A DNA stretch of 59,515 nt, filler included, from Perkinsus olseni (lineage: Eukaryota): assembly GCA_013115125.1 (NCBI GenBank). It is 2 parts of 2 records of this genome, joined end to end, with 100 filler letters (N's around TTAATTAATTAA, not from the genome) between each part and the next. Parts side by side here need not be neighbours in the genome. Positions count along the whole stretch, not along the records: positions 1 to 29,771 come from JABANN010000429.1; 1 more part is not named here. One strand, written 5' to 3'. Below the pieces are notes generated by a model. That model saw only the letters and a program-made list of their open reading frames with translations. It was not told the origin of the DNA and did no database searches. A program made the position numbers and the translations under genes. Of this stretch, positions 1 through 57,441 are shown in pieces. Each line of letters opens with the position of its first letter. The stretch's first letter is position 1.

Positions 1-498
1 CTTCTGATTCGTGATTGTTACCGAGATATCGCTCTTTTTGGAAATATTCTAAGATTATTTGGAGCACTGTATACTTGTTACCTATTATCCTTGGGTATTG
101 AGTTCCCAATTACACAGCTGCTCTCCTCCAAATCGCGTATAAAGCCGACACGTTCGGCATGTATGCTTCCCTCTCTCTAAACCCTGACATCCGAAGGCCA
201 TCTACCGGGTCAGAGGAGAAGCTTGCGTGCAGAAGCAACTTCTTCTCTCCGTTCTTCTAATCTGCGCATTCTCCACCAACGCAGTCTGCGCCGTGGGCGC
301 ACTCGTAATTTAGCGGCGCAGTGACGCCGATCCTGGAAATGCGAGATCGTCTTGAATGAGGAACAGCAATGGTCGGGCCAGGCTCTCATCCCGACAGCCC
401 CTCCCCCGAACCATGAGGCTCAACGAGTCCAACTCTCCGCACTGCGAAGATTCTTCTCAAGTGAGCGAATCTTGACCACCTCCAGCTACTTTCCCTCC

Positions 499-2679
<2,181 letters not shown>

Positions 2680-4756: not shown

Positions 4757-6410
4757 TCGACACTACAATATAGGAAGCTGCTGCTGTAGTGTAATCGGGA
4801 GTATGATGATGGTTGTGGGCGATGCACGAGCTGTTGTGGCGCACTTGATAGGATGATGCAGTGTTGATGTTTCAAGTTGCGGAACAGAAATAGGAAAATA
4901 GTCGTCAATGAAACTAGAGTCAACAAACCCCGTCATTGCCGCAATGGCTGAGGACAATCCAATTTTCGCAATGCAGCATCAGCTTCGGACGGTTAGAACT
5001 GCAAGGGGCAGGGTCGCGGCCGGCGATGGCTCCTCTCTGGACTGGGTCGACGGGGATTATGTGCTCCACCTCGGCATGTTCGTTGCTGAGTCAGTGACAC
5101 TGCCTTGATAGCCACGCCAACTGAAACCTCTAACTACGGGGACTGGGAGTCGGGGCGGTGGCCACGACGGACCTGCAGGCGGTGAGGCTGACAAGGAGCT
5201 ACGTCGAATGCCCTTCCTGTGGCCTTGCGCCAACAGTTCCTGCGTTTGGCTGCGCACAGCGGGTACACACCCCCTACGCGTGTAGCGGCCAGCCCAGCGA
5301 GGACCTACACCCGTATATTGGGGCAGGTCCAGGCTCACCCGTAGTCTCGGTTAGTGGGTAGGGACCCTACCGTAGGGTGGGATTGATCGGCTCACGCAAA
5401 GGCTGCAGAGCCGCTCAGATTGGGATACTAGAAGGAAAGAGAGGGGACTAGGGGCTAGTCACGTCGTCCTCTATGGCGAGGCGCAGACCAGCCACCGGGA
5501 GTCCTGCGGCTATGACCGCATTATCTTCAAGACAAATTGATCGACTCGCGCAGAGGCTGCAGGGTCGATCAAATCGTTACCGAAAAAACATGAAGACAAA
5601 CTGACAGACGAAAGGTGGCTCGGGTTCACGCGTCTAGCAGAACCGCCTCCCTTTCGTCGAGGAAGATATACCACGGTAGTACCGCGACAGTATTAGAATA
5701 TTACACCCAGACAACGATCAGTATTACGAGAAGGTAAATCCGACCTGGCTAGCGCTCTAGCCAATGCTGCTAGCACACAAATATTGGCCCCTTTCGCGCC
5801 GGTTTCACCGTCGATAAAACCCTGCGGGATTTACCTCAGTACGAAAGCCAACACAACCGCGCACAAGAGTACTGCAATGGGTCGACACTTGCGGCTAGCT
5901 GAGACCGATAGAGTTGTGTGTCGAACACACTATAGGGGATGGGCAAGATGAGGTAACGACTCGAGCGGCTCGAACTGTGCCTCCGAGCACACGCGCCTTC
6001 CAAGTCAACTGATTGACTGATCGCAAGCAGTTCGTTCCACAGAAAGACCTGACTTAGTACTGCCTTCTTGCCTCCTCGTGAAGCGAGTAACACAAAAACC
6101 AGAGATCAGCGCGGCTAATCTCAATGATAAATCACCAGAAGATTCACGTTAATGAATGACCATTATGGCATTAAGAGTGGCAGCCCACACGACAAAATTC
6201 CTGCCGCTGTACAGCAACGGCATTCACTGCAACCAGACCGCGCGAAACCAATCTGACAGATTCGCTCGCCAGGGGAGACTCCTCACAGATCGAGCGCCGT
6301 ACTCTTCCATCTCAGAATCACTAGATCAGAGAGCTCCAGTGTAGCGGGTGGGGCCGATCCATCCGCGGGAACATATACTCAGGATACCCAATCGAGCCCT
6401 ATGGGGGCAA

Positions 6411-6560
6411 CACTCACTGGCTCTCCCCCAGCCGAACCTCTTCGCTTCTGCCACGGCAATGCCTCGCCTCTCGATGGTCGCCATATTCCTCCTGCACTGT
6501 CTGCTCTTCTACAAGGGGTATGCTGCCGTGGGCAGTAGTAATGAAGATGAGAGTCCGGTG
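6411..6560 (+). repeat. Conserved leader plus signal-peptide cassette, repeated at ~8958-9110 and ~13620-13772 and partially at 11374-11465
   Basis: ACACTCACTGG..cag|CCGAACCTCTTCGCTTCTGCCACGGCA-ATG (27-nt leader identical in 3 copies) and TTCTACAAGGGGTATGCTGCCGTGGGC identical in 4 copies. Confidence 0.9.
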
Positions 6561-8064
6561 AGGATATGGTTGAGCAAGATGATCGACGGCTTCAGGCGCT
6601 TCGCTAGAACGGGAAAACTGGAAGTAAGAGCAACGGACATCAACCACCCGCTTCAATCTTCAGCCTTCAACAGTATTCTACTTCGGCCTCTCTGCCAGCT
6701 TCATAGCATATTGGTAGCAGTGGCAATAGCTCTGAGTCGATATCGGGAAGAATAACCATTATGAAGTAGACCGAATCAATAGGCTGAGCTTAAAACGCTG
6801 TCTTGATGCACTGTAAATAGTTAGAGGCAACGGCGGCTTCGCGGCCGTGTACGAGTAGCTTGTCAGGAAAAAAGTCGGAGGCACAAGATTGAGACTTTCC
6901 ATCAGTCAGGAGTGAAGGTATGTTATTTTACGTACGGAAATACCTGAGGACAGTCATTCACCCATTCAGTATCAATTAGGTGAGGACGTCATCACCCTCG
7001 TGGGGAAGGGAAACATGATATACTCAACTCTGACAGACTTTGCTCGCCTCGAGCGTGTTGCCGAGTAGAAGCTGTCCTTAGCCCATCCTTGCGTGCGCAC
7101 TGTTCTGTATTTGCCAGGACGGGCAGTGGACAGAGAGTCCTCCACTATACAGCTATCGTTGATGATGGGGTAATGGACCCTTTTATGTTGGATGAGAGGA
7201 CAACGAGGTTGCTTACTGAGCCCAGAACAAGTGCCAAGCGACAGAAAGGTGGACGCAGACGTTCGACCACCGGGAGGAAGCACCTCCTGGAGAGGATATC
7301 CGAGCAGCTCGACGACGATTACGAAGTCTTAAAGAAGAGTCGTCATGTCTGCAAAGTCACCTCGGCTCGGATGCCCAGGACGCCACATTTAGATTTCCTA
7401 CAGTACCTCAAGTAGCGCTTGGAACGATCTGCCAGGCAGCGAGTAGACTGTTTATCCTCACTTCTTAGGCGGGTTTGGAATCTACGTTAACTATGACTAT
7501 GGAAGATCCGGAAGAAGGTTTCAGAGTCAGCTCCTTGACGGCAGAGCTCAGAAGCGAGCACTTCACGTGAGTTAGGCCCTTGATTAAACGGAAAAAATAC
7601 TGTGGCGTTTGCATCCGTGTAGACAGCATGAGTGTTCTACAGTATCTGTGCTGCCCGTTCGTGTAACACGAGCAAATCCCAAGACGGAGCGGTTAGTGAC
7701 CCTCTCGAGTGGTGGATTCGCTTGCCTTTTCAGAGATGTCCGATTCGCTTTCGACCGCCCTAAGCTGCAGGAGATGCACTCAAACGTGGGAGTTGCCGCA
7801 GTACACCCCTCGTCGAGGAAATTAGGCCGAGAAAAACTGAAGGAAATTTGCGAGGAACAGTTGGAGTTGTTCGCAAGATACGTCGCGCCTTCGTATGGTG
7901 TCGTTTTCGATGCTCTCCCAAGGACCCTGTATCCTGAGCTCGTTCTGAGGTGGCTGGCGGAGGGCTCATTCGTTCACTTGGGACAACCCGGATTCGAAGA
8001 CATTCTGTATGAGAATGCTGTTAGTCTGCGTCAGTTTGATGTGACGGAACGCAGAGGCAACTGA
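6459..8064 (+). CDS. Unknown secreted protein family, paralog 1 (multi-exon)
   Basis: Signal-peptide-like MPRLSMVAIFLLHCLLFYKGYA; family motifs YQLGE..LTDF, YTAIVDD, LKKSRHVC, SSLTAELR, KLQEMHS, ICEEQLELFA and LYPELVLRWL..GSFV, with intron positions shared by 3 neighbouring copies. Confidence 0.75.
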
Positions 8065-9005
8065 GGCTAGTGACGATGATGACGTGTGCGGAACGCGTTC
8101 CTTGTGCCAGTATTTCTTGCTCGGCTCACGATCATCCCAGTATTTGTGTATTAATAAGGTAAGAAATCGTACATGATGTTGATGTTGCCGACAGGCTTCA
8201 TAAGTTCGCGTCTGCCGTTGATGTATTGAGTCGTGGACGATGTTGTGTTGCCCAGGATCGGTCAGCAGGGAGACGGGCGCTGCAGGCGGCTGACGCCGAC
8301 CGAATACTTTCGTCGGCACTCTATGCTTGGGTCATTTGGCGGCGCGGAAGTCACCTAGGTCCAAGATTCTCGGCAACATTCTCCACGGCGTGGCGCGGCA
8401 GATTCAGCGATACTTAACTTTGAACTCTACCGATCAGCGCCGAGACAGCCGAATGAGCCTCTTCTGTAGCGGCTCGAATAATGATAGTCATTCTCACAAT
8501 GACTAGCCGAGCACCCACCAAGGCCGTCAGAGTTCGGACAGATGCACGGTCGTATCAGCATGCTTTCCGCGAGGCGCTGCGCTCCCGTTGATGGCGAAAT
8601 AGGGTGGCCATGAATCATGGCTCATGATCATCATGGCATGATGGCACCACGTTGAGGATGTGTACGAGCTGATGATTGGCACCGTGTGTGAGCTGAACAC
8701 TTTCCGAATGGATATCGTCCGAATCGGTCTACCCGCCACGGCTCATTCTCGCAACCAATTCTTTTTCACAATCCGGCCCAGCCCTGGACGTCTCGCCGTT
8801 GTTGCACGGCGGTTGAAGGAAGTGTTGTCGTACCGTATCATTCCCGCACGATAGAAGCTTGGCATTTGGGAAACGCCACTCATCGTGCGGTCAACATTTC
8901 CATTCCTTAGGCCGTAGACGTACACTCGAGCTACCCAATTAAGCTGCGAGAAGTCCACACTCACTGGCCTGTCATCAGCCGAACCTCTTCGCTTCTGCCA
9001 CGGCA

Positions 9006-10502
9006 ATGCCTCGCCTCTCGATCGTCATCATATTCCTTCTACACCGTCCGCTCTTCTACAAGGGGTATGCTGCCGTGGGCAGTAGTAATGAAGATAAGAG
9101 TCTGGTGAGGAGACGGCTAACCAACATGATCAAGCGCTTCAAGGGGCTCACTGGAAGACGGAAACCCCGCGTACGTGCAGCTCAACTCGGGCGGCCCCTC
9201 GGCATACCATCGCCCAGGCTAGCTTGATGCCAGCCGGAAATGTCGTTCAACGGTCTGACTCTGAAACTCAGAATCGATTCCAGAACCGCATTTTACGAGT
9301 GAGCAATGCGGCTGCAGTGTACTGAGTGTCAACAGCGACTTCCCGTTTGCGGGAAAATAACCTCGTAGGCTAATATTCCACCTTTCAGGGAACACGAGGG
9401 AAGCGCCATATGAAGAACTAATACTTGCTAGGAGCGCAAGTCAGTGTTTGCACCTCGACCTTACGAACACAAAGCTGGAGCTCCCTTTTCAGTATCAGCT
9501 CGGAGAGACCATAGTTACCATTAAAAAAGATGGGAATCTGACGGAAGTTCCACTTCTCACCGACTTTACTCGTCTAAATTCAATACCAGCGTACGGGGCA
9601 TTATATGCGAGCTTAGGTGTCCGTATGTCTGTGCATATCTCAGGGGCGATGGACACTCGACGCCTCGATATAGAGCAATCGTCGATGGCGAAGTTATTCA
9701 CCAATTCCTGCGAAGTACATCGACAACACAGCTCAACATGAGAGGGGCTTCTTTTGATGGAGATCGAGAAGCCGATGCTGTCGAGCGTTTCAGTCTGAAG
9801 AAGCGCTTGAAGCAGCATCTCCTGGAGACGTTATCTGACCAGCTTGACAAGGAATATGAAATGTTGAAGAAGACTCGGCATGTTTGTCTAATCACTTCAA
9901 GCAGATTTCTTCGGCAAGGCACACTTCTTCAAACCGGAGTGAGGCTCTGATGACAGTCTTCGTCACGGAGACTCTCATCAGAGCGAATCTTGCATCGGCC
10001 TTTCAGGTGGAAGCTTTCTTTGAGGTCGAGCTCACTAGTCCAAGCTTCGACGAGAGATTCAAGCTTAGCTTTCTGAAGGCAGAGTTCAGAGGAGGCAACT
10101 TCACGTGAGCCACGCGACCAAAGAAATCGCTAAAAACCTTCGAAGGCACGGGCCAGCGTTCCATCTCTCAGAGATTTCTCCTTCGACAATCGCAAATTAG
10201 AGAAGATGCATTCAAAAGCGGAATACGTTCCATTTCCCACACGTCCGCTACCACTACGGCCACAGGCATATCTCAAGCTCGCTTGCTACAAACAGTTCAA
10301 GCTCTTCGCACGCTATACCGCTAAACGACAGAAAAACTACCGTCGTAAGACCGGTCGTCTATATGCCGAGCTTGTTGTGCGGCAGCTGACAGACGGGTCC
10401 TTCGTCTACTCCGAAGCACCCGCATTCGCAGACCTCTTGTTTGGGGATGAGCTCAGTTCGCATGAGAGCTCATACGACGAGAGGTTACGCCAGGGCGAGT
10501 AA
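9006..10502 (+). CDS. Unknown secreted protein family, paralog 2 (multi-exon)
   Basis: MPRLSIVIIFLLHRPLFYKGYAAVGSSNEDKS; YQLGE..LTDF, LKKTRHVC, LSFLKAEFRGGNF, KLEKMHS, CYKQFKLFA, LYAELVVRQLTDGSFVY. Confidence 0.72.
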
Positions 10503-11373
10503 GGACAGTGACAGCAAATAGTTCTTCGGTCCTCGCTGTGGAACCCTCGACGACGCGAGCGAATCGAACGACTAACGAGTTAAAAAGGTGGGTTGCTTTG
10601 CTCGATTCACCGATCAGTTTAAGCATGTTCGATGTTGTGAAGAGAAGCGACTTTCGTGGCTCTTGTTTATGTAGTTGGTGCTGAGCTCTGTCGCGTTACG
10701 CAGTTTGAGGGCTGGGGCTGGGGAGAGGGAATGTAGGCCCGACAATTTTGATCGGTTTGCCATACTCGCCGTTCGACTGGGCGAAGCCATGACTGTGAGG
10801 TGTCCTTTTTCCGAAGTCATTCTACTAAGCGCAAGACTCGTGAAAACCTGAGAGGGAATTCGGAGGCTCGAAGATCCTTTCCAAGCTGCATCTGGGACAT
10901 CCTCGCTTTTATGCTCTTCGTCCTGGAGTTCTTAGGAGGGCCCCCGGGTAGTAGTCCCCAGGACTACTACCGTACTACTACCGTAGTACGCAATGTTCCC
11001 GGAATAGAACATTCCTGAAATACTTGGGGAAGCAGAACATTCCTGAAGGTTGCTGAAATAGCAGAAATGACTTGGGGAAGATGTTGAGCATCATCCAACG
11101 GTTGCTTCACGGCATTGCAATACAATTCTGCTGCAGCGAAAGCACGATGATGATGAAGTACAAGTCGAGGAGTGTTGTTCCTCGACGTGAGCAGGAGATG
11201 GATACCACCAGCCAGCCCATCAGCAGCAGCCCGGCCCATCCAATGGCGTCTCGCCTTTTTCGTGCACTGATGGAGGGATTCCGCATGGTTACCGCACGAG
11301 ACTATGCAAGAAAACACAACTTTTCGAGCTGCCACTTTCTTCCATCAGAGGGAGGAACTCTACTCCCGTAAAC

Positions 11374-12832
11374 GTCATCATAATCCTCCTGCACTGTCTA
11401 CTTTTCTACAAGGGGTATGCTGCCGTGGGCAGTAGTGATGAAGACGAGAGTCTGGTGAGGAGATGGTTAACCGGCATGATCAACAGCCTTGGGAGCTCCG
11501 GTGGTATTCGGATACCCCAGGTAAATGCTTGACGCCCCCTACTGTTAACTGCCGTCACTTGAAGCGCTTACCTGGGGCGTTGCATATCTTTTTACATGTC
11601 CGTGTTCACGGAAAACCAACTGGACTGAGAGGATACGATGATCAGATAAGCTTATGATTCTTCCTTCAGGAAACACGAACAAGTCACCAATTGAAGAACA
11701 TATACCTGCCCGGGGTCCAGGTGAGTTACCCTGATCGCACCCCTCAGGCATTATGAACTCAAAGCTAGAGCTTCCTTCTTCAGTATCAGCTCGGGGAGGA
11801 GATAGTCATCGTCGAGGATAACGGGCAGCTGAAGACCATCTCAATTTTGACCGACTTCGCCCGGATCGAATCCATATACGAGTAGGAGCAAATTGCTCCG
11901 AGCAATCCCAGGCGCAATCGTCATATCTCGTACTCTCCTCGTGCCTCAGGAGCGACGGATCGGAATCCCTCCGTTATACAGCGATTTCAGACGAGGACGT
12001 TATGCGCCTTCTCTCGGCAAATCGTGTGACAACTGACTTCAATTTGACAGCGACCTCTGACCCCGATCAGAAAGGCGATGCTTCCAAGCCTCCAAAATTG
12101 AGGAAAAGCTTGAAAGAGCATCTCACGGAGGGAATATACGAACAGATCAAAAGAGATTACGAATCTGTGAAGAAAAGTCGACATGTCTGTCGAGTCACTT
12201 CTACTCGAGCGCCCTACCTTTCACTGACAGCGTACAGCACACCGCAAGTACTGCGCGATCGGAATACGCTCCCTCTCGAATTTTGCAGCCAAGAGCAGCA
12301 GCTTGGTTGCACTGGAGATCTCGTCCGTTTTCAGATAGAGGTTGTATCTGAATTAACTCTCACTATGAGGAACTTAGAGGAAGGTTTCAGACTGAGTTCC
12401 CTCAAGGCCGAGCTCAGATCAGGGAACATCAGGTAGGTCGTGCGCGCCGTTGAAATGAAGTATCTTTGCTTAGCTTTGTATGTAGACGGCCCTGTTCAGA
12501 ATCTTCTTCACCCTCCGATGTTGTGTTCTTTCAGAGACTTCCACTTCTATTTCGACAGTCGCAAGCTTCGGGACATGCATGCGCATGCGGGAGTTGGCCC
12601 GGTTGAACCCTCGGATTTTCATACGCTGTGTGTCGAGCAATTGAAACTATTCGCGAAACACGTCGCCCTTCGGCGTGGTATCAATTTCAATACTTTCCGC
12701 AAAGAGCTTTATGCTGAGCTTGTGCTCGTGTGGTTGACGGAGAGGTCCTTCGTTTACCCCCGAAACCCAAGATTCGCGAATGACTTGACGGCGCCTCACG
12801 TGGCGGGTATGAAAGTGAGGGCGAAAGATTGA
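11374..12832 (+). pseudogene. Unknown secreted protein family, paralog 3; start codon and leader cassette missing
   Basis: VIIILLHCLLFYKGYAAVGSSDEDES begins abruptly at ~11374, with no in-frame ATG back to the upstream TGA at ~11188; downstream exons look intact (VKKSRHVC, LSSLKAELRSGNI, CVEQLKLFA, LYAELVLVWL). Confidence 0.6.
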
Positions 12833-13034
12833 GGAAGACCACCGGGAGTGGAAACTTCTTACAGTTCCTGTTTGGAGCCTTGACTCAGTTAGGAATTTTG
12901 TATGGATGTTTTTGACGAATTTGCTGATGTACTCAGTTCGAGCGGTTGTTGAGTTGACTAGTCTCCATCAGCAGGAGCCACCTAAGGCTGTCATTATTCA
13001 CGCAGCATTCACGGAGCGCGGTGAGGGTCCGGAT

Positions 13035-13128
13035 GCGCTAGCTGGCAGTGGTGATGAAGCGATGAGAAGGAGATGGTTTAGCGGTGCAATCAACGGCTCG
13101 AAGGGGTATATTGAAGCAGGCAGCCGAG
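13035..13128 (+). pseudogene. Degenerate exon-1 relic of the same secreted family
   Basis: ALAGSGDEAMRRRWFSGAINGSKG resembles AVGSSDEDESLVRRWLTGMINSLG of paralog 3; no further exons recognisable. Confidence 0.4.
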
Positions 13129-13668
13129 TCCTGCCTGCACGCTCGGAATCTCGGGTGATGACACGATATTCAGGAAGTACGACGGCACGTGCGTCGTACT
13201 TTTTTGCGCTTCTGTCCGCCATGAACTGTTCATGATAAACACAAGTACACGAGTAGCCAGCGGGTACGCAAAACACAGTCCATATCACATGAGTAACTTA
13301 CTCTCGATTTACAGCCAACCGACCAGTACTCGTGCTCTGGGGCCCATCGCGCTCCGGAGTCGGCCTGGCAGCGGTATCGTCCAGCAGTACCTGTCAGTCA
13401 TGTAGATCACACAATCAAGTACTGCCTAAGTGGCCTCCCGCCGCACCCCTACCTGGTGCCGCCTTCACTGCAAGCTCACTGGAGGTACTGCATCTTTCTC
13501 CGTCGATTTGTGCGCTACTTATCGTGCGGCGAACGATTCCACCGTCTCCTCAGCCGAGCGGGAGGCCCTCACCGGGGTCCGCGTGCACTCGAGCCACGAG
13601 CCGATATCTACAAGAGCGACACTCACTGGCTCTCCCCCCAGCCGAACCTCTTCGCTTCTGCCACGGCA

Positions 13669-15137
13669 ATGCCTCACCCCTCGATCGTCATCATGTTGTT
13701 CCTGCACTGTCTGCTCTTCTACAAGGGGTATGCTGCCGTGGGCGGTAGTAATGAAGATGAGAGTCCGGTGAGGAAATGGTTTAGTTATATGATAAACAGC
13801 TTTAAGAAGTTCACTGGCTCTCAGAAGCCGCGTGTAAGTGCAACTGATGTCCAATAATGTTGCAATTGTCACTCATAGTCGCTATTTTGCCTGTGCTATG
13901 AAATACGCTTCGTAATAGACCGACCTCTCCGATTGGCGTGTTGGGTATGATCGATCGTGATCGGAATGGTGACGTTCAGTACCGTCAGTGACTCCGTGTG
14001 TGCTCTGATATTAACTCGCTGTTCAGGAGGAAGCCAGGCCCCAACACCGAATGAAGACATTCTATCAGTCCGGAATGAAGGTGTGTCGTTCTCAGTGCAT
14101 AGACATCCCAGGGTACGATCTTCCTCATTCAGTACCAGCTCGGCGAAGATATCACCGCCATTCCAGAAAAAAGAATTTCGGAAGTTCCAATCTTGACCGA
14201 CTTCGCTTGGCTCGAGCAACTACCCGAGTAGACACCGCCCCGGGTCAACTTTCACGCCCCATCCCTCTAAATGTGTCGGGGACGACGGATCACGAAAGCG
14301 TCGATATGCAGCGATTGTTGATGACCAAGTCATGCGCGGTTTCCTGCTGCAAACGCAACTCAACGTCAGCCTGAGCACCGGCGGAGGGGAAGCTTCCGCG
14401 CATCCGGCTTCGGAGAGGACATTGAAGGAGAATCTTCTGGAAAAGATAAGCAGCCAGCTCGCTGATGAATACGCGACCTTGAAGAAGAGCCGACATGTTT
14501 GCAGCGCTCGTTCGATTCGGATCTTCAAAACCTCGCGTTCCGGGAGTCATGTAGCACTAGAAAGCGTTATTATAAAGCTTAGATCTTGTTTTTCAGCCCG
14601 CGTCTGTGTCTGAGATAACACTCACAATCGATACAACCGACAGGAGTTTCAGAGTTAGCTCCTTGATGGCGGAGCTCAGAAGAGGAAACTTCACGTGAGC
14701 TAGGGGTCCGTTTGAGCTGAACTCCCCTGCCAGAAAAGTCCGTAGGCAGCGCTGGTCGAAACATTCGCTGATGGTCGGCAAGTCTTTTGTTTCTCAGAGA
14801 TGTCGACTTCTCTTTTAACCAACATAAGCTACAGGAGATGCATTCGTACGCGGGTATCCTGTCAGAGCGATCCTCATCGAGGCAGTTGGGTAGGGGACAA
14901 CTGCAGACGATCTGCGAGGAGCAGCTCAACTTGTTCGCAAAATTTGTGGCACCCCGGCGCGGCGTTATCTTCGATACCCTCCCCAAGACTCTGTATGCCG
15001 AGCTTGCGCTCATGTGGCTAACTAATGGCTCGTTCGTTTACCCGGATCGACCAGCATTCAGCGACATCTTGTGTAAGGACGTGGTTCGCGCTCGTGGGTT
15101 TGATGTGTCTGTGCGCGGGACGGGAACGTACCAGTGA
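13669..15137 (+). CDS. Unknown secreted protein family, paralog 4 (one acceptor reads GG instead of AG)
   Basis: MPHPSIVIMLFLHCLLFYKGYAAVGGSNEDES; YQLGE..LTDF, LKKSRHVC, SSLMAELRRGNF, KLQEMHS, ICEEQLNLFA, LYAELALMWLTNGSFVY; orthologous acceptor at 14277-14279 is CGG. Confidence 0.68.
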
Positions 15138-15648
15138 CTGTGGAGAATTCCTCCGTATTTTTTTCGAACCCTGTACTCAGCGTAAATTTACATGTTCTAC
15201 TTTAACAGTTGCAGAGAGCTCTCATAAATTCGCTCCGTCCTCCTGAGTGCTGTCGCGTGGGTGAGTGTCAGCTATACGTTAGCTCAAGAGGGAACACCAA
15301 GAACCGCCCACATGAACTATGAAAGGTTTCGCCTGGGGCGTTCGATTGTGGACAATAACATGTTCAGCGGTAGAACGGAAAAGAAGTTAAGAAAATCGAA
15401 AAACTGGAAGGTTGCTCGTCATCAGCATTCGAGGAATACATCTCCCGCCTCAAGGGTGTTGCTCAACACTATTTCCACTCTAGGTCATACACAGATACGC
15501 GCGTCAGTTACATGCAAGCTGAAAATTCCAGAGGCCGTGATAACAGCTAGTGAAAGTTGCGCCATAATACTCGACGTACGACTCGTTCTCGGAGACTATT
15601 GTGAAGTGCCGACCTCCCCAACCGAACTGTGAACTCAACCGATCAGTG

Positions 15649-25399: not shown

Positions 25400-26713
25400 T
25401 TAGAAGAAGTCCCGGATAGCTAAATACGTACCGAATACCATCGCCGCTGCTGCCACGACCAACAGGGACCGTTGATGCCACGTCTTCCAAGCGGCCTGCT
25501 TCACATGACTTAGCTGAAGGACTCTCCAGTAGTAAACAGTTGGGTAAACCAACGCTATGAGAACAACAAAAACAGCGCTCAACAAGTTGACCAGCTTGTC
25601 TACGCTCGGCACCAAAAGCGCGATCAACGCGCAGAGCGCGACCAGACCGACACGACATGTACAACGGACGGCTTCGCCCACAGCAGGACTCTTCCATCTG
25701 CTCTTGTCATCTAACTTTAATAGAGTATCGCTCAGCTGGGCAGTAGGGGAGAAGAGGACCAGGAAGTGAGTGCCAACCAGAACGATAGTGCTGGCATTGA
25801 TGAGCCAGGAATAGATGGTCCAATCAGCTCTGTTTGGTGGGGTAAACGCTTCGACCATGGTGTCATACTTGCTGATCCCGTCGCCAAAAGCGAGGTATCC
25901 GGCAACGGTAATAGCAAAATACACCACAGCCACAATTACAAAGGAAATCCAGGCTACTTTAGGGAACGTTTGAGGCCTGTAGACATCCTTAATGATAGTA
26001 GGAACAGTGATACTGACGTTATAGGAGAGAAGGAAGGTGCAGAAAACCGCTACGAGCTGCACTGGACTGCCTGATAGAATGTAAGTGACTTCCTCTGGAC
26101 CTTCTTCCTCTCCTTCAGGAGGACCGTTAATATACCGATCCAAGCTAGCTAAGACCACTAACACTACGATAGCAGCTACCGAGGCGACACCGAGAGCCGA
26201 GAGAACGCCAACTTCCTTCATAGTCGGTAGGCACGCGAATGGCGCAATGACGAGGGAAACTATCAGCAACCAGAGATTGTATGACAGCACATCGGTCATG
26301 TTGTACATACTGGTAGACAATAGTATAAGAAATACCGCACAGGCAGCAATGAGTAGAGGGTGGAGAGTGACCGAGTTCATCACGGTCGCCAGACGACCGT
26401 AGCAGATTCGCCCCAGTTCTTCAAAGGACCGTATAACATGCTGGGGGTTTTCAGGGTTGAGACAAAGCGCATGGCAAAGTAGCACTACGTTGTAGTACAC
26501 AAAGGCAGCTGCTACGATCAGCAAAATACAACCGCTGACCCAACCAGCTCGACCGAAGGCCATAGGAAGCGTCATGATACCCAAACCGATTGCAGTCATG
26601 ACGAGATTAAAGACGGCCTTGGCATTGGAACAGCCATTAGGTACTATGATCTCGGCTTTGTAAGATTCCCCGATCTTAAATAATACGGACGAGGTAGGCG
26701 AGCCCGGTGACAT
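25400..26713 (-). CDS. Amino acid/auxin permease family (Aa_trans) transporter, intronless, 437 aa
   Basis: AVFNLVMTAIGLGIMTLPMAFGRAGW motif, SFEELGRICYG, GYLAFG and about 11 hydrophobic segments; single open ORF. Confidence 0.92.
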   Translation of the reverse strand: MSPGSPTSSVLFKIGESYKAEIIVPNGCSNAKAVFNLVMTAIGLGIMTLPMAFGRAGWVSGCILLIVAAAFVYYNVVLLCHALCLNPENPQHVIRSFEELGRICYGRLATVMNSVTLHPLLIAACAVFLILLSTSMYNMTDVLSYNLWLLIVSLVIAPFACLPTMKEVGVLSALGVASVAAIVVLVVLASLDRYINGPPEGEEEGPEEVTYILSGSPVQLVAVFCTFLLSYNVSITVPTIIKDVYRPQTFPKVAWISFVIVAVVYFAITVAGYLAFGDGISKYDTMVEAFTPPNRADWTIYSWLINASTIVLVGTHFLVLFSPTAQLSDTLLKLDDKSRWKSPAVGEAVRCTCRVGLVALCALIALLVPSVDKLVNLLSAVFVVLIALVYPTVYYWRVLQLSHVKQAAWKTWHQRSLLVVAAAAMVFGTYLAIRDFF

Positions 26714-26954
26714 GACGACGTAGGGTTGGTCTCGAGAAGGAGTCCGACAAGGTATGAAATAAATCCTGTACTCGACAACAGCACCCCCTTCAATGAGGCG
26801 AATGATGCCCCATCACAATTGCCCCCTCCCCTCACAATCTATCGTGCCCGCATGGTCTACGACTAGTTTGACGTCGACAGATCTTCGAGATCATCCACGG
26901 TTCGCCGTGGTGATCTTATGAATGATCTCAAATGGTCAACCTTGATGCGTCCTG

Positions 26955-27619: not shown

Positions 27620-28305
27620 CTGAGGTTCACTTGTGGGGTCACGGAACACGCAAAAAGGATACCGGAGGGAATTGCTAGAATGCGTAAGATTGCAAGATTT
27701 CTCAGCATTCGCGTCGTCATCCGAGTCGTGTAATGGACGCAGGAGCCTAACGAGAATTAGACGCATTAATTTACACTCCTAATGCTTCCATTGTGAAGCA
27801 GGAGATTTACTACGGTGTTCTCTCAAGTGCATCCGCAGTGTTAACTCTCACGGGGAGAGAGTGCAACCTTTGTGACAATGCGGCAGTACGCAGTGAAGAG
27901 TCGACTTCACGCAGTACTCACGGCAAAGTCACTAGCCGCCCTACAAAGGCGAATCACCGCTTCACGCGACCTTACGTTAAGCCAAATGAATGCCGAGGTA
28001 TGTCGCGTTCTGTGAGGGAACCCTGGTCTTTCACTTGTTGAAGGGAGCGATGACTCAATCGAAAGTAAACTGTGTGACAAGTGGTAGCTAGAGGCCAAGC
28101 TAGCCAAGCTATAAAGTGGTACATACTACCAAGGACATCGACCGTGTTAATGACCGCCAGCACAACGGCTGTGATTGAGTGTCTTCTTGGGTTGCGGTTC
28201 TGATGTTAGGTCTCAGCGTACGTAGCCATATCGCGATGAGGGGCAAAATAGCATCAATTGGGGTGTCAGCTTTTTCCATTTCTCCCGAGAGTACCTCCAT
28301 AAGAT

Positions 28306-29586
28306 ATGCCACGTTCTGCTTCCACTGAGTCGCCCAAAGACCTACGCGAGATGATAATACCCGATGGCTGCTCTAATGCGCGAGCAGTTTTCAACTTGGT
28401 TATGACAGCCATTGGCCTTGGTATCATGACCCTTCCCTTGGCCTTCGCTCGTGCCGGTTGGATTAGTGGTATCATCCTACTCTTCGTGGCTGGTGTTTTC
28501 GTGTACTATAACGTAACCCTTCTCTGCGATGGTCTTTGCATGAACCCCGAGAACCCCAAACGTCCTATCTTGTCTTTCGAAGACCTTGGCCGTATTTGCT
28601 ACGGAAAAGTTGCTACCGTGATAAATTCTATTACTTTGCATCCCCTTTTATTGTGCGCTTGTGCAGCTTTTCTTATTCTCCTCGCGACCAGCATGTACAG
28701 TCTCACTGGAGTGTTGTCGTATAACCTGTGGCTGCTCATCGTCACCATTCTTATCATGCCTTTCTCCTGTCTGAGATCCATGAAAGAAATTGGTATTCTC
28801 TCAGCCCTTGGAGTGGCTTCTGCTTTCGCAACAGTCATTCTGGTTGTTATTGCCAGTGTTGATGAGTATGTTGCAGAGGGTATCGAGAACGACACGATTA
28901 CGTACCATCTTTCGGGAGGACCGATTCAGCTCATCTCCGTTTTCTGTACCTACCTGCTGTCGTTCAACGTGAGCATTACCGTGCCTACCATCATGAAAGA
29001 TGTCCGCCGGCCTCAGAGGTTCCGCAGAGTGGCTTGGATATCTTTCGTTTTCGTTGGTGTGGTATACCTTCTCATCACCACTGTTGGCTACCTAGCTTTT
29101 GGCGACGCTATCACCAACTACGACACTATGATCGAAGCCTTCTCGCCTGGCAATCGCTCGGACTGGACAGTCTATTCCTGGCTCATCAACATCTGTGCAG
29201 TGGTGCTTGTTGCCACCCACTTTTTGGTGATTATGTCTCCCAGTGCTCAATTATCAGATCATCTTCTGGACGAGAACCTGACCAAGAAGTGGACCAATCG
29301 TGTGCTTGCCGAAGTGGTCCGTTGTGGTCTTCGTATCGGGCTTGTTATACTGTGTTCGCTCATCGCTTTCTTCGTCCCCAGCGTTGACAAGCTAGTGAAC
29401 CTTTTAAGCGCTGTTTTCGTTGTTCTCATTGCGTTGGTCTATCCGACTGTCTACTACTGGAGGATCCTGCAACTTCACGGTGTCACTCAGAGTCGTTGGA
29501 TAGTTTGGGTTCAACGTGTTTTGGTTGCCATTGCTTTCGTTGCTCTCGTCTTCGGTACCTACATGGCTGTGAAGGACTTCTTCTAG
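28306..29586 (+). CDS. Amino acid/auxin permease family (Aa_trans) transporter, intronless, 426 aa; paralog of 25400-26713
   Basis: Co-linear with the left copy (CSNA.AVFNLVMTAIGLGIMTLP; PSVDKLVNLLSAVFVVLIALVYPTVYYWR; ends DFF). Confidence 0.92.
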   Translation: MPRSASTESPKDLREMIIPDGCSNARAVFNLVMTAIGLGIMTLPLAFARAGWISGIILLFVAGVFVYYNVTLLCDGLCMNPENPKRPILSFEDLGRICYGKVATVINSITLHPLLLCACAAFLILLATSMYSLTGVLSYNLWLLIVTILIMPFSCLRSMKEIGILSALGVASAFATVILVVIASVDEYVAEGIENDTITYHLSGGPIQLISVFCTYLLSFNVSITVPTIMKDVRRPQRFRRVAWISFVFVGVVYLLITTVGYLAFGDAITNYDTMIEAFSPGNRSDWTVYSWLINICAVVLVATHFLVIMSPSAQLSDHLLDENLTKKWTNRVLAEVVRCGLRIGLVILCSLIAFFVPSVDKLVNLLSAVFVVLIALVYPTVYYWRILQLHGVTQSRWIVWVQRVLVAIAFVALVFGTYMAVKDFF

Positions 29587-34200: not shown

Positions 34201-36251
34201 TCACGCTGCCTGGGCCATCGCCACTTCCTTCTGACACATTTCATTGCCGTCCAATGTCTCAACTCTATCTCTAGAGATGGCATAGGCTTTGCCAATAGGC
34301 AACTTCTCCCCTCTGATAGCTTTGGAAACGAAGTCAGCCCATCTATTGATGGCAGTTTGGCCAAGAGGAATCACCTGACCATGATAAATCGAGGGAATTA
34401 ACAAATACATTTCCTGTCTATCGGACAATCGGCAACTGCTGCCCGCCCGCCTCACCGACGAAAACATGGGAAAGACGTGTATCATACGATCGTAAACTTC
34501 GTAGCAAACTCCTTTCTGCGCTTCAGTAGCGAACTTGTCAATATCGTCTCGTAAGGCCTCGGCGCCTCCAACCTGTCAACAGCAATGCGACTCTCGTCTG
34601 AGCGGCGAAGCGGTCGCTCACCTGTAGTAATATCGGCACGTTTCCGAATGCCTGAGGATCAACTTTCCCGTAGGCGACCGAGAACAGGGGATGCTGAGAA
34701 GAACGGGATTTGTACGATCACAAGAAGCTAGATCAGAGCATCCGCCTACTACCGGCACACTTACCTTTTCCATCCTGTGATCAGGGGCCATCTCTCTCAC
34801 CCTCACCCACTCCTTATCATCGAACTTGCCGGCCTTCTGGACGTAGCTATCACTTTCTAATGGATGATTTACCGTATCCATCCTCTCGCCGGGGTGGGAG
34901 GGCCTTCCGTACAATACCGAGACACAGTGCCAGATCATACCGTTCGAGAGGATATCGTGACTTATGTCCAGAGACTTGCGCGCAACAGCGGGGGCCATGT
35001 CGACACACGGCTCCAGCGCTAGGCAACACGCCGGGCGGGGCAAATTTTCACAGAAGTCGTTCTCCGCCAAGCACTTCAGGAACCCAAGCGACAAGGACGC
35101 GCCAGCCGAGTCACCCCCGACAACGACGTGATCGCTCTTCACAGGGAACCGATCTTGAGAGAGAAGGAATTTATAGCCTTTCACGACCTCCTGCAACTGG
35201 GTAGGCAGAATCTTCTTGGGTGCGGTATCATAGCTAAGGATGTACGCCACCACTGTAGCATCTTTCCAGCCATCACTGCGGAGTTTCGCTTGCATGGTCT
35301 CGACCATGTTGGTGACCAGTTCCAAATGGCTCGTCACACCATCGAAGAAGCAGTAGCCACCGCCGTGAATGTAGTATAGAACAACAACGTCTTCAGAGCG
35401 AATGGGCTCTTCTGAACTCCAAACCTGAAGAAGGTAAACACTTAATTTCAACACTACGGATCCGACGAGGCGCTAATTGCTGGCGACCAATGACTATGAC
35501 CAGACTCCGACGGTCAGAGGTAGCTAGATTCATAGCTCTCGAAAGGTATCGGAATCCCTCCGTGGACCCTCCTCATGAGAGGCATCCCCTACTACCCATA
35601 GACCACTGTTAACTTCCTTCGTCGCGGGGATCTTCTCAGTCCTCATATGTGGATGACAGAAATATGCATATACTGGTAGGTACGCCTGTGGTGGAAGACA
35701 GCAATCGCTTTTCCTGCCACTCAGAGGACGACGATGATGATTATGCTACAGCTCACCTTGCACAGAGCCTCTTCAACTCGCACGACTTCTGATACCAACT
35801 CGCTATCATCGCTCGACTCATCATTGAACTAACAACAAGAGTATCGAGTAAGGTCAACCTCACGACGGGTTGCTGGTGAGGAGACAAGAATTACCTCCTT
35901 CGGCATCTGGAGCACTGTAGCCACGAGCACCTCACCCGTCACTGCTTCGCCCTTCACCAACATCCACACCAACTGAGAGACCAACGAACTTCGTCAATCC
36001 AGCCGCAACAAATCGGGCCTAGATCTTAACTTACCGTGAAAGTCGCCTCTATCATGTGCTTGGCCATGAGATACCATGACCTTAGACTCACCCCTAGAAG
36101 AGACCTGGCAAAATTCGAGACTGGAATCCCGCTTGCAGCTGGTAGAATCACTAAGAACTTACTTCATGAGCTCCGTCCCCTCCGGCGTAACAAAGGGCAC
36201 AGAGTCCAGAACGGCCTGCGTTAAGACTTCGATCGTCTTGAAGAAGGTCAT
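34201..36251 (-). CDS. HSL-family (Abhydrolase_3) esterase/lipase paralog A
   Basis: MTFFKT..VPFVTPEG; YIHGGGY, GGDSAG, QVGGAEALRDD, MIHVFP; GT-AG introns shared with paralogs. Confidence 0.88.
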
Positions 36252-37279
36252 TCAGAAATATCGAACACGATAATTAAACTGACAGCCGCCGATAGCAATG
36301 TCAAATCACTTCCTAGCGAGGTACGACAGCATTGGGGACAATAGGCTCGAAAATTGCACAAATATTTCCACAAGACAACCACAATGTTCAACCGCCGCCT
36401 CCGCCTCCCAGGATTCTAAAGGAGCAATGGTCTTGTATACATAACTGTACTTTACTGTCGGTCCTTCTTCAACGGGCAGGATCCGCTTTGCGAGACACCG
36501 AAAGCAAGGGCCCTAGTGCATGCTGCAGTTCCCTCGATCTCAACTCGAAGGTTACAATTATCGACCAGGCCACAAAAGCTCCAACTTTTCGAACGGATTT
36601 GCTCAATTCAGCATTCAAAACGCTGACGTCTGCTCCGGTCCTTTACTTGGCGAGGAGTGCCGAGGTGGCCTCTCTTCTCAAACTTACACTGCTGAAGATA
36701 TTCAACCTGCTGATTCCAGAGACAGCCTTCTAAGCAGGAGTCAGATTTTGCCGTAACAAAGCAGGTTCAACTGCTTCTTCGGACTAGGAACCACCACAGC
36801 CTCGTCTCGGAGTCCATCCTGACATTCGGCGTGATCACAGCAGCACGGCATAGTACGGATTCTAATCGTCCTTGCGGTGGAACGTAATTCACTAGATACG
36901 TCAAAATAGCGTTCCGGGAAATACAGCAAGATGGAATTAACTCTTGAACGACTCTTAGCTCTCATCACTGCGTGAAACAGCCAAGTTGCGGCTAACGCAA
37001 CACACATCTTAAGGCCTGGCACAAGAGGCAATACATACGTATCGAAACTGAATATGAAAAGAACTAGAAGAAGTCCTCGAGAGTATAACCGAAACAAATG
37101 GGTATGTGGGAATGGCGGACGACATATGCTGTCGCTAACACCGATGTCCAACATCCAGCAACAAAGGTGATACTAAATGACGTGGCGATGCTCAAGCGAC
37201 CATAACTACGTGCAGGAACAAATAAAGCGCAGTACAAACATGTCACCCATCAACGCTCAATAATGAGTAGCTGGTAAGC

Positions 37280-39168
37280 CTACAAAGCTTCAACTCTCTC
37301 TGTCGAGATAGCGTAGGCTTTGCCGAGGGGCAATTTCTCGCCCTTCAGAGCCTTGGAGGCGAAGTCGGCCCAACGATTGATGGCAGTGCGACCGAGAGGA
37401 ATCACCTGCGACACAGGGAACATGAAGCTACGGAAAGACGGCGCAGCTCGTTCACTCTGCTCACTTGACGCAAAGCATTCTCATGCAAACGCCCGACTTA
37501 CACCAGCGGCCGCTGGAAACACATGGAACATGTTCTCATAGACTTCAAAGCATACACTCTCCCGGGCTTTATCCGCAAAACGCGCGATGTCATCGTACAA
37601 GGCCTCTACGCTGCCAGCCTGTCACCAGCAATGGGAGGAGCGCGAAGGAGGCAGCTGGACCCTCACCTGTACTAGGATAGGCACATTCCCGAATGCCTCG
37701 GGACTGACGTCCCCGTAGACCACCGAGAATAATGGATGCTGAAAGGATAATGTTGATGGTAATGACAATGGATGACAAGCAGAAACCGGGTGAGAAGTAG
37801 CCTTACTTTATCCATTCTGTGATCAGGGGCCATTTCTCTCACCCTCACCCACTCCTTATCATCAAACTTGCCGGCCTTCTGGATGCATTCATCACTCTCC
37901 AACGGACGATTGATCGTATCCAATCTCTCACCAGGATGAGAGGGCCTCCCGTACACTGCAGGAGCGCAGTACCACAGCATAATGTTCGACAGGAAATCGT
38001 GGCTGATGTCGTAAGACTCGCGAGCCGCGGAAGGAGCGAAGTCAACGAAAGGATCGAGAGCCAGGCAACAGGCAGGTCTGGGCAAGTCCTTGCAGAAAAA
38101 GTTGCCTCCCAAACACTTGAGGAACCCCAGCTCGAGGCCACCGCCCGCCGAGTCACCAGCGACTGCGATACGATCGCTCTTCACGGGAAAGCGCTTCTGG
38201 GTGAGGAGGAATTTATAACCATTCACGAGCTCCTCCAGTGGGGTGGGTAGAATCTTCTCGGGTGCAAGGCTGTACTCAATAATGTAGCCCACCACTACGA
38301 CGTCCTTCCAACCTTCACCACGCAGCTTAGCCTGCATGGCCTCAATGATGTTCACGGCAAGACCCAGATGGCTCGTGAAACCGTCGAAAAAACAGTAGCC
38401 ACCACCATGAACAAAGTAAAGGACAACAACATTCTCCGGGTCAACCGGACTCTCGGAGCTCCAAACCTGAGCGTCGAAGCCATCCAAACGACGTCAGTCT
38501 CGTCACGAGACGTGTAGCCGACAGTACCCAAAGGCCCTTGTTAACATTTTCAGTCGCTGATATAGGTTCCGTCACCAAGTTGGGGTGGCTAAGGCGCACC
38601 ATAGCCGGCTTCCAGACCTAGCGAAGGACGATGCACGTCTAAGTTCTCATGGCACCGACCTACATTGCCGACGGCCTCTATCATCCTCATCACTTCAGGA
38701 AGAAAATCCCCGTCAGAGCTTGACTTATCGTTGAACTGAGTGTTGCACGGGCGGGGTCAGCAACATTCACACGACGACCAGGATGACTATAAGTCACCAA
38801 ACGCGCTACCTCATCCGGCATCTGAATCAGTCTAGTGACGACGTCCTCCCCCTTGATGGTCTCTCCCGCGATGGCCATCCGTGCCAACTAACAACAGCGG
38901 AGACTTCCCGCGCCCACCATCCTCCGTAGCAGACCGCCATGCTCACCTCAGTGAAGGCTTGGATGAAATGTTTGGTCATGAGATACCATGCTCTAAAACT
39001 CACTCCCCACATCGCTCTGAGAAAGGTCTTTTCAGCGCGTTATCCAAATGCTCAGCCCATTAGACTGAAGCACAAGAATTACCTCAGAATTTCGGATCCT
39101 TCCGGCGTGAGGAATGGTATCGTGTGGTACCACGCGTCCAGCAGAATACGCAATCCTCGCAGTGACAT
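37280..39168 (-). CDS. HSL-family esterase/lipase paralog B
   Basis: MSLRGLRILL..IPFLTPEG; FVHGGGY, AGDSAG, EALYDD, MFHVFP; stop TAG at 37280. Confidence 0.88.
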
Positions 39169-40322
39169 TGGGGACAGGTAGAAGCCTACACAAGGGCCCT
39201 AGAGATACCCGAAGGAACATAACCGAAGACTGCGTATCAAGCAAGAGAGCGAAGAGAATGACACATATTGCTGGAGGGAAGCTGAAGAGGGACACTTGCA
39301 CAAACCGCTGCACGAAGATTTGCACGCATGCACCTGGGTGTACTGAGTTCCTCAAGTTACACGTGGGTGGCGCGAGTTACCGCCACAAGCATTCAAACAT
39401 GCGATAACGAAGAGCTATTGAAGAATACTACCTGTTGGAGCGGATGCTCACGACGCCCAGACCGTCTTGGAGACCGTGTGAAGCTTGTTTCAGGTTTTCA
39501 TGACCATCGTACTTTGGACAGACTGGTCGTCTATGAAGGTTTTGGGATCGCATGGTCCGGGCCTTAACAACGAGGCTCACTCGAGTTTCTAGTCCGTTGG
39601 TGGGAGGAGGACGGGGGCCTCAACCCAACCCCCAACCTCTATAATCCTGCGACTGTGTGGGCACACAATCCACCTGTCCCCTAGCGCTAATAGTATTTGT
39701 TCATACTGTATTCATAAAGATCAGGCTCTGCTTGGAAATTCGCGAGTCAGAAAACTGTGTGGAGTCCACGTTCGCGAAGTGCGATACCAGCGATTACTAA
39801 CACAACAGACTTACGCACCTCAAGCTATCGAACTGAACGATGATAACAAAGAGAGATGCTGACTGTCAGTGTCGAAGCTGAAGGTCTCTCGTCAATTGCG
39901 CCAGCATCAGAAACGGCTGCTGAATGTGAATACGACTGATACAGCTTGTCAGTTGAGATTCTCAACTTGGCCCAGTAATCGAGTCCGGCTCAGGAAGAGC
40001 ACGAAGGAAAAAAGAAAATCTAGCGCAAACCGCAGCGCCTACGTATGCGTCCGAGCCGAAGAGCGCCGGAATACGCCATATCAGAGCAGCACGCCTTGCC
40101 TTAAGCGATACACTGAGTAGTGGAAATAACCGTAGCGAACAGGGCCGTTGCTGTTGTGCATGTATAACCCACAGCGCGAAGCGCTGCGTCCAACGACCGC
40201 CTGTCGCTGAACGACAGTGCATGTGCACAAAGCAATGAATACAGGAGCAAATGTTAACTCTGTAGCCAGTCCGAAGCGAACCTTTATGAACGCTACGGGA
40301 AATCGTGACAGATTTGGGCTCC

Positions 40323-42397: not shown

Positions 42398-42793
42398 TAA
42401 GAACAGGTGGAAGCCTGGAACTCCGGAACATGATGACCATACGAGCGACCAATAGGAAGCGACGTGTGACGCAGTTGAGGAGAAGAAGCACGAGCGTGAC
42501 AGAGTCAGAAGTTCAAGACCTACATAAACTCGCAAGAACCATTCGACTGAACCGCGCAACATCGAGGAAACAAATGGTAGAAACCAGAGCTGTCGTGCGA
42601 TATAGAACGCTCCCGCTCAGTGCGGGAAACGGTCGATCAAGCGCTACGGGTGAATAAACACCACCTTGGGAGTCCACGTCCCTTGAAAAAGTCATCGGGG
42701 CGAGACCTGACATGGCCTTCTATACACATCAAGAAGCGGAATTTGGACCTCCTGCGTGTTGTTGTTGTCGACGGACAACTCAAATACAAGACT

Positions 42794-44683: not shown

Positions 44684-45111
44684 GCAGGCGGTGACACTGA
44701 GCCTCCTTTTAACGGACCTCCAAAGGCTGACAACACGAATCTCGACGACTCAACAGAGGTGTTCAGTGGATTAATTCTGAAATCCAGAATCGATCCTGGG
44801 ACCGAATTTCACGGGTGAAAAGAAGACCACAGAATCTGAGTCTCAGATGGGGGAGACGAGCGGCTCGCATCGCCATGGACAGTGGGCGTTGGTATCAGGA
44901 GGGGGCAATTCACAGACGCCGTCGCACTCGACCTTAGCTGTCCCAACGCCCACTACTGTCGAGCAACCGAGCACGGCGAGGTTTGAGAACTATTTGAATG
45001 AACGGGGGGGAAGGTTGGATCGACAGACACCTCCGAACGCAATCCGAGTCGCTGAAACGGGAGACGAAGCTCATGATGATAACTGGTGAAAATCAGGAGA
45101 AACCTAACTCC

Positions 45112-45756: not shown

Positions 45757-45911
45757 CTCGGATGATATCCTGAATCGGAATACACCACCGTCGCCAAACA
45801 AACGCAACAACCAAGCGGCCACCAAAATAGCGAATCCTGATTGAAATACTTATATGGCAAGAAATACGTCATGCGATGACTCAGCTCTTTATGACGGTGA
45901 ATGTCTTATCC

Positions 45912-57173: not shown

Positions 57174-57441
57174 AACAATGGCAACAATTCCAACTGAGGG
57201 AAAGCGTCGACGTCCACCAATCTTAGCATCTTCCCGCGAGAGCACAACAAAAAAGAGGAGTAGAAATCTAGATTACGAAGAGCAGCCAACGGGATTGAGT
57301 CCAGCAGTAAGTGCAATAATTGTACGTAGTGCAGCAGTAGCATCAGCAGCATCATTATCGGCAGGTCCAGATCTCACTTCCCGGCTGCATACCACTCATC
57401 ATCGGTATCAGCGCTACCACCAATAGTATCATCGCTATCGT

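Follow-up and report, generated by a model that had tools for sequence, protein, structure and literature searches.

Why do neighboring genes that have diverged over most of their length remain alike at their 5′ ends? The question is raised by a 59,515-nucleotide (nt) stretch of Perkinsus olseni DNA (assembly GCA_013115125.1; two parts of the genome joined by filler), referred to here as the window. Between 6459 and 15137 it holds a tandem array of four six-exon paralogs and one exon-1 relic, from a family known only from P. olseni. A preliminary description had regarded the array as one of the effector or toxin families of parasites, with a near-frozen export cassette carried on strongly diverged cargo. 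In our analysis the paralogs proved to be old, and the explanation that we favor for their similar 5′ ends, with a probability of about 0.55, is short-tract gene conversion between neighboring copies, probably reinforced by selection on 5′ signals.

To build the gene models, open frames and GT/AG sites were combined with alignment of the copies to one another. All four paralogs are on the + strand. Copy 1 occupies 6459–8064 (exons at 6459–6623, 6867–6917, 6970–7064, 7118–7355 or to 7411, 7469–7566, and 7734–8064), copy 2 occupies 9006–10502 (9006–9170, 9389–9439, 9493–9590, 9644–9938, 10007–10104, and 10172–10502), and copy 4 occupies 13669–15137 (13669–13833, 14027–14080, 14133–14227, 14280–14550, 14597–14694, and 14798–15137). 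The gene body of copy 3 lies at 11374–12832, where a truncated exon 1 (11374–11520) is followed by exons at 11670–11720, 11784–11881, 11950–12247, 12335–12432, and 12535–12832. Exon 1 is 165 nt long in copies 1, 2, and 4; in copies 1–4, exon 2 measures 51, 51, 51, and 54 nt, exon 3 measures 95, 98, 98, and 95 nt, and exon 5 measures 98 nt in each. The five introns have homologous positions in every copy, with phases 0, 0, 2, 0, and 2. The four co-oriented multi-exon paralogs with common intron positions that were described previously are therefore real features of the locus, and all the motifs listed for them (YQLGE..LTDF, Y.AI.D, LKKSRHVC, SSL.AELR.GNF, KL.EMHS, C.EQL.LFA, and LY.EL..WL..GSFV) were found in the alignment of conceptual translations. 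Intron 4 of copy 3 (12248–12334) is in frame and stop-free, within an open frame at 11822–12436, so its retention would leave the protein untruncated. A tblastn search of the whole window with six family proteins found no further members outside 6400–15200.

The similar 5′ ends form a block of ~166 nt, from about −58 to +108 around the ATG, with 83–95% identity between copies. In the alignment, the block runs from ACACTCACTGGC at −58 to GGTGAGGA at +108. It was located on the + strand at 6401–6566 in copy 1, at 8948–9113 in copy 2 (by segment identities and alignment), and at 13611–13776 in copy 4. In copy 1, it consists of ACACTCACTGGC, a pyrimidine tract, AG 6430–6431, which is a putative spliced leader (SL) trans-splice acceptor, a 27-nt 5′ untranslated region (UTR), the ATG at 6459, and the signal-like and acidic coding part, with a donor-like GTGAGG at 6558–6563. 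Among copies 1, 2, and 4, identity was 83–95% in the leader (−48 to −1) and 88–91% in coding nt 1–102, which were 79–80% identical to copy 3. None of the 29 nt upstream of the ATG, which include the invariant 27-nt 5′ UTR, varied in these three copies. Identity was 58–65% in the rest of exon 1, 40–65% in exons 2–6, 12–66% in introns, which is beyond reliable alignment, and 17–51% in the flanks. A 41-nt core occurred four times with at most one mismatch, compared to no occurrences in 100 shuffles. A metagenome scan with a 27-nt core of the block gave no matches.

The strong divergence of the downstream exons and introns agrees with the preliminary description, and its nearly identical 5′ cassette of about 150 nt was found in copies 1, 2, and 4. 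Copy 3 has the 3′ part only: it keeps the block from codon 7 onward and has unrelated sequence in place of the leader, the ATG, and the first six codons. The spacer between copies 2 and 3 (10503–11373), which stands where the leader and start of copy 3 would be, contains two occurrences of a short direct repeat, AGAACATTCCTGAA. A fifth unit is present as a degenerate exon-1 relic at 13044–13098 (+), which matches the 3′ part of the cassette at ~80% identity and shows a 6-nt alignment gap, relative to the copy 3 cassette, at the internal donor-like site.

Substitution rates were calculated by the Nei-Gojobori method, with codons 1–36 taken as the cassette; this check had been proposed along with the preliminary description. 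In exons 2–6, synonymous divergence (dS) was 1.23–1.65 and nonsynonymous divergence (dN) was 0.40–0.61, giving dN/dS ratios of 0.24–0.46 in all six pairs. In the cassette, dS was 0.00–0.29 and dN was 0.08–0.14, with a ratio of about 1. The paralogs are old, with synonymous sites and introns saturated, and exons 2–6 are under weak purifying selection. These exons behave as ordinary paralogs, and the diversifying cargo that had been proposed was not borne out.

The variable sites of the cassette were distributed over the three codon positions as 7:6:8, with no third-position excess. Selection acting on the protein would not have restrained third positions and is therefore not the explanation of the block. 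Alleles from other assemblies provided a further comparison. At the protein level, copy 3 and its allele P0003 (KAF4737501) were identical at 27/30 residues in the cassette and 242/280 in the rest, and copy 2 and P0008 (FOZ63_016149) were identical at 28/33 and 128/153 residues, respectively. Among the paralogs within the window, protein identity was 69–83% in the cassette and 38–50% in the rest. This suggests that the cassette is not intrinsically slow and is alike only among neighbors, which favors homogenization. The idea that the cassette has been frozen by selection on the protein is contradicted by the codon positions, by dN being close to dS, and by the equal rates of cassette and remainder between alleles.

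Gene conversion is expected to leave a tract whose divergence between paralogs is far below that of the rest, silent sites included, and this was found here. Between alleles, as judged at the protein level only, the tract also changed no more slowly than the remainder of the gene. We infer that neighboring copies repeatedly exchange short tracts, which would keep a ~166-nt block in concerted evolution. Within this block lie the candidate trans-splice acceptor, the 5′ UTR, the ATG, and the signal coding region, with the donor-like GTGAGG at its end. Selection for functional 5′ signals may add to the homogenization. A unit that drops out of the exchange would diverge, and the relic at 13044–13098 has diverged as a unit no longer homogenized.

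Transcription was examined with contigs, rather than reads, that are identical to the window and come from two public runs, X1 and X2, neither of which is recorded as RNA. All statements on RNA rest on the contig pieces listed; where these give no cover (copy 3, the greater part of copy 2 and of copy 1 beyond exon 3, and intron 3 of copy 4), the gap carries no information on expression. Seven introns were confirmed among these pieces, and their GT..AG joints coincide exactly with the exon models: 6623>6867 and 6917>6970 in copy 1 (run X1), 9170>9389 in copy 2 (run X1), and 13833>14027, 14080>14133, 14550>14597, and 14694>14798 in copy 4 (run X2), all on the + strand. Copies 1, 2, and 4 are transcribed and spliced. 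A lack of transcription of every copy had been named in advance as grounds for dropping the effector interpretation, and it was not found, since at least three copies have spliced contigs. The other two grounds named, a match to a characterized housekeeping family and the lack of a predicted signal peptide, do not apply either: no known domain was matched, and the N-terminus is signal-like. X1 also has pieces that run collinear and unspliced across copy 4 and across the leader of copy 1 (6388–6533), suggesting that this run contains precursor RNA or DNA as well.

One X2 contig begins exactly at AG 13640–13641, after the pyrimidine run of copy 4, and the four letters ahead of this point are not matched by the window. 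Such a start resembles SL addition, and trans-splicing may take place there. The X1 contig at 6388–6533 is collinear through the equivalent site of copy 1. Perkinsus mRNAs are SL trans-spliced, according to an excerpt of PMC3101222, and the SL motif GGCTCAAG is, on our reading, the reverse complement of the motif quoted in an excerpt of PMC9399869. Separately, a stretch of ~40 nt in intron 1 of copy 2 (9252–9297) stood out in X1. The summed contig depth rose to 43 in the bin 9009–9309, and many contigs leave the window sequence with loose ends at 9255–9297. This stretch seems to recur in numerous transcripts or loci elsewhere. The window has a single occurrence of it, with no tRNA or Rfam match.

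As judged from its sequence, each of the four copies in this haplotype departs from an intact reading frame. In copy 1, splicing from the family-typical donor (GT 7412–7413) to the exon-5 acceptor at 7469 would break the frame, which is kept only through a weak donor at 7356, with exon 4 ending at 7355; in the NCBI annotation this gene is divided between P0007 and P0001. In copy 2, exon 2 contains an in-frame TAA at 9419–9421; the acceptor of this exon is confirmed by RNA, and the NCBI model P0006 omits the exon. Copy 3 has no start codon in the window. In copy 4, the acceptor position of intron 3 reads GG (14278–14279), compared to AG in the other three copies. No canonical alternative acceptor for this intron preserves both the frame and the LTDF motif, and retention of the intron leads to an immediate stop. 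Alleles free of some of these lesions exist elsewhere, since P0003 is full length and exon 2 of P0008 has no stop. Frame defects in all copies, of which at least three are still transcribed and spliced, make the family look dispensable or variable between haplotypes.

Each gene is predicted to encode ~325–345 amino acids (aa): a signal-like segment, an acidic SSNEDES stretch, a basic and partly amphipathic segment, and a remainder of ~270 aa. The N-terminus begins with MPR, continues with the core LS(I/M)V.IFLLHCLLFY, and is followed by KGYAAVG-SS. A classical ER signal peptide would have a basic n-region, a hydrophobic h-region of 7–15 residues, and small residues at −3/−1; by hydropathy and inspection, the N-terminus has a signal-like layout. 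The sole hydrophobic segment was at residues 1–20 in all eight sequences examined, and Kyte-Doolittle windows of 15 residues exceeding 1.6 started only at residues 1–7 in 8/8. AlphaFold2 placed a helix at residues 3–24. In copy 2, the hydrophobic core contains R and P. Plastid or mitochondrial targeting was considered and set aside on inspection, as the stretch following the hydrophobic segment is acidic. No KDEL-type end was present among the C-terminal hexapeptides listed. The proteins most likely enter the secretory pathway. An acidic linker followed by a basic amphipathic segment had also been proposed for the family. The acidic stretch was present in all four copies, and the basic segment was amphipathic in copies 1 and 4, with hydrophobic moments of 0.68 and 0.52 (reached by 1.8% and 1.3% of shuffles); copy 2 and the copy-3 type (P0003) had weaker moments.

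The mature part of 300–315 aa has 2–4 cysteines per copy translation, of which two are conserved in the alignment. No known domain had been recognized in it previously, and this stands: five exon translations and six full models gave no Pfam family above the cut-off (best E = 0.02, below it), a sequence profile search of the PDB gave no significant match (best E = 0.61), and the ESM Atlas gave no usable hit, with a model confidence (predicted local distance difference test, pLDDT) of 0.32. AlphaFold2 models had a pLDDT of 41.7 for the full length (15-row alignment) and 57.9 for the last-exon domain (8 rows), which was helical. A Foldseek search of the PDB with the latter model returned no matches at E ≤ 0.001. 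At such low model confidence, the missing fold matches do not establish that the fold is novel.

Searches of ~1.8 and 5.8 billion proteins found seven matching proteins in total, and all were hypothetical proteins of P. olseni: P0003 and P0008, as well as KAF4656113 (P0001), KAF4751379 (P0002), FOZ62_025603 (P0005), FOZ61_007173 (P0006), and FOZ61_007175 (P0007). The last exon of copy 4 had four hits among 1.84 billion representative proteins. Three were genuine and all from P. olseni; the fourth, a repetitive pea protein matched in 11 short stretches, was taken as spurious. A word-indexed search with the 335-aa P0003 found five proteins and a profile search with the family alignment found six, all from P. 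olseni. Within the limits of these protein searches, no relative was found in P. marinus or any other organism. A literature search at the level of listings and abstracts found no publication on the family.

Complete identity was found between P0006 and copy 2, as well as between P0007 and P0001 and the two halves of copy 1, indicating that the window matches the FOZ61 haplotype. P0003, from another assembly, is an allele of copy 3 with 86–90% identity and an intact MPRLS start. P. olseni is polyploid and highly heterozygous. The seven public models are unnamed and automatic, several of them are split, chimeric (P0002 and P0005), or exon-skipping, and the description of none of them includes the array, the 5′ block, or the lesions. 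In P0005, from another assembly, a copy-2-like exon 5 is fused to a copy-3-like truncated exon 1, suggesting that the truncation of copy 3 is common to at least two assemblies, although P0003 is intact.

Several observations weigh against gene conversion as the full account of this locus. Thirteen of the 21 variable coding sites fall in +18 to +48 (Fisher p = 2e-5 versus the rest of the block), and the 5′ UTR has none in its 29 positions. Recent conversion alone should give an even spread, and a degree of constraint on the nucleotides is therefore likely as well. In every pair the block is cut off sharply at the same points, which fits a functional unit at least as well as it fits repeated conversion tracts. 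The allele comparison is at the protein level only, and the GC content has no clear signature of biased conversion (57% versus 46–61% in the flanks). The wider picture is also open to challenge. The lesions of copies 1 and 4 lie outside the RNA pieces listed and could be explained by unusual splicing or assembly errors, and the signal peptide is a putative one, judged by hydropathy and inspection.

The main rival explanation, possible but less probable, is that the block is a functional element at the nucleotide level, conserved for its role as DNA or RNA. It would be a complete mini-exon unit with a CACTCAC resembling a branch site, a pyrimidine tract, a trans-splice AG, the invariant 5′ UTR, the start and the signal coding region, and a latent donor between G and GTGAGG. 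Such an element might serve co-regulation, translation control, or alternative splicing that removes the basic segment in frame. The invariant 5′ UTR of three copies would fit this, as would the invariance of +49 to +75 in all four copies, the lack of a third-position excess, and the significantly uneven variation within the block. All pairs agree on where the block begins and stops, and its 3′ limit coincides with the donor-like GTGAGG; we suggest that the 5′ limit may be tied to splice signals. The X2 contig that starts at AG 13640 after four unmatched letters is consistent with trans-splicing of the kind described for Perkinsus in the excerpt of PMC3101222, with a putative SL at this site. 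The internal donor is used in the NCBI models P0006 and P0008, and the resulting splice is in frame, whereas the contigs listed use the downstream donors (6623, 9170, and 13833). RNA folding stability was not in excess in the three full cassettes (z = 0.01, −0.74, and −0.02), the interval 6000–15500 had no Rfam match at E up to 1, and no tRNA was found in the window. Between alleles, moreover, the cassette protein is as variable as the rest of the gene. A stronger form of this explanation, in which the 166-nt block is a secretory cassette common to the array, conserved as RNA or DNA and combining a trans-splice acceptor, the invariant 5′ UTR, the coding sequence of the signal and acidic pro-region, and a latent in-frame 5′ splice site, appears unlikely. 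If it were true, the cassette would coordinate expression of the copies or let each gene alternate between a long protein and versions without the basic amphipathic segment, and the product of copy 2, ended by the stop in exon 2, would be a secreted peptide of ~40 aa that is highly basic. The array would then be a protist counterpart of the prepro cassettes of venom or antimicrobial peptides, on a domain of novel fold.

It is also conceivable, if rather doubtful, that the copies are transcribed pseudogenes of a decaying lineage-specific family and that their similar 5′ ends are a by-product of recombination between tandem copies. The stop of copy 2, which lies in an exon with an RNA-confirmed acceptor, the missing start of copy 3, the missing canonical intron-3 acceptor of copy 4, and the frame of copy 1, which is lost at the family-typical donor and is split in the NCBI annotation, could all be read in this way, together with the near-equality of dN and dS in the cassette and the presence of the relic. 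However, dN/dS well below 1 in exons 2–6 indicates long-term constraint on the protein, and other assemblies have intact versions (P0003 and exon 2 of P0008). The frame of copy 1 can be kept through the alternative donor, and its lesion and that of copy 4 are putative, as they lie outside the RNA pieces listed. The effector or toxin family of the preliminary description, in which a conserved export cassette would carry rapidly diversifying cargo into the host, was the least probable of the explanations considered. Part of it stood: the organism is a parasite, the family is species-restricted and has no known domain, the genes are transcribed, and the signal-like N-terminus is followed by an acidic and then a basic amphipathic stretch. 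Copy content and integrity also vary between assemblies, as is common in host-interaction families. The part that did not stand was the export module on variable cargo. Positive selection was not evident in exons 2–6 in any of the six pairs, and a search of annotated proteins longer than 98 aa with the exon-1 peptide gave five hits, all five from this family, so that the cassette does not head unrelated genes among these proteins. Regular expressions applied to the first 90 residues of eight sequences found a PEXEL-like motif (RxLxE/Q/D) in 1/8 (P0003), RRL in 1/8 (copy 2), and RxLR in 0/8, and thus no conserved host-targeting motif of the PEXEL, TEXEL, or RxLR type. The mature part of ~300 aa with two conserved cysteines is unlike small cysteine-rich toxins, and all four copies here have frame lesions. 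Any role of the family in host interaction would be putative.

With gene conversion kept as the preferred explanation of the block, the statement on the locus that has the best support is that it holds a family of secretory-pathway proteins, dispensable or variable between haplotypes, with concerted evolution at the 5′ ends. At present this falls short of a new export system. P. olseni parasitizes and damages clams and abalone, and its secreted proteins are very little known. The locus defines an undescribed, species-restricted family that probably belongs to the secretory pathway, and the corrected gene models replace public ones that are split, chimeric, or exon-skipping. It also offers a compact case of a 5′ island that has remained similar in paralogs otherwise saturated with change, and the differences in integrity between haplotypes could be useful for population work.

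The surroundings of the array were annotated as well. Upstream, at 325–2600 (+), is a gene that we take, from a motif in its open frames, to be a probable GDP-mannose 4,6-dehydratase, suggesting that the array adjoins ordinary housekeeping genes. Two Aa_trans amino-acid transporter genes at 25400–26812 (−) and 28303–29586 (+) (Pfam E = 1.5e-50 and 2.8e-52) are divergently oriented and intron-poor. A second tandem array, of five Abhydrolase_3 (alpha/beta-hydrolase) paralogs identified with Pfam, is located at 34618–48005 (−), and a SCAMP-like membrane protein is encoded between its fourth and fifth members (45112–45849). A CAF1/PARN-type ribonuclease gene at 57442–59250 (−; E = 2e-68) adjoins an open frame of 1375 aa at 53145–57272 (−), which is low-complexity and serine-rich.

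Among known systems, the Plasmodium PEXEL and oomycete RxLR proteins are similar in being secreted parasite proteins with a conserved N-terminal region ahead of a variable body, but their leader motifs are not conserved in the P. olseni family (1/8 and 0/8, with RRL in 1/8). Conotoxin and frog preprodermaseptin precursors combine a conserved signal or propiece with a variable mature peptide. The resemblance to them lies in a signal region conserved to its synonymous sites, with the rest diverged, and in an acidic stretch that precedes a cationic amphipathic segment. The contrast in dS between the cassette (0–0.29) and exons 2–6 (1.23–1.65) is of the conotoxin type, whereas the positive selection and the short cysteine-rich product of that type were not found. 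The P. olseni family is set apart by its mature part of ~300 aa with 2–4 cysteines, which is not a short cysteine-rich or linear peptide, by dN/dS ratios of 0.24–0.46 rather than above 1 in all six pairs, and by its four copies only. The human fetal globin genes HBG1 and HBG2 are tandem duplicates that evolve in concert in their 5′ part. Like them, the P. olseni array has a 5′ tract with sharp limits in which neighboring paralogs resemble each other far more than elsewhere, with synonymous and non-coding sites homogenized. It differs in that the tract is only ~166 nt long, the rest is saturated (dS above 1.2), and conversion is here inferred.

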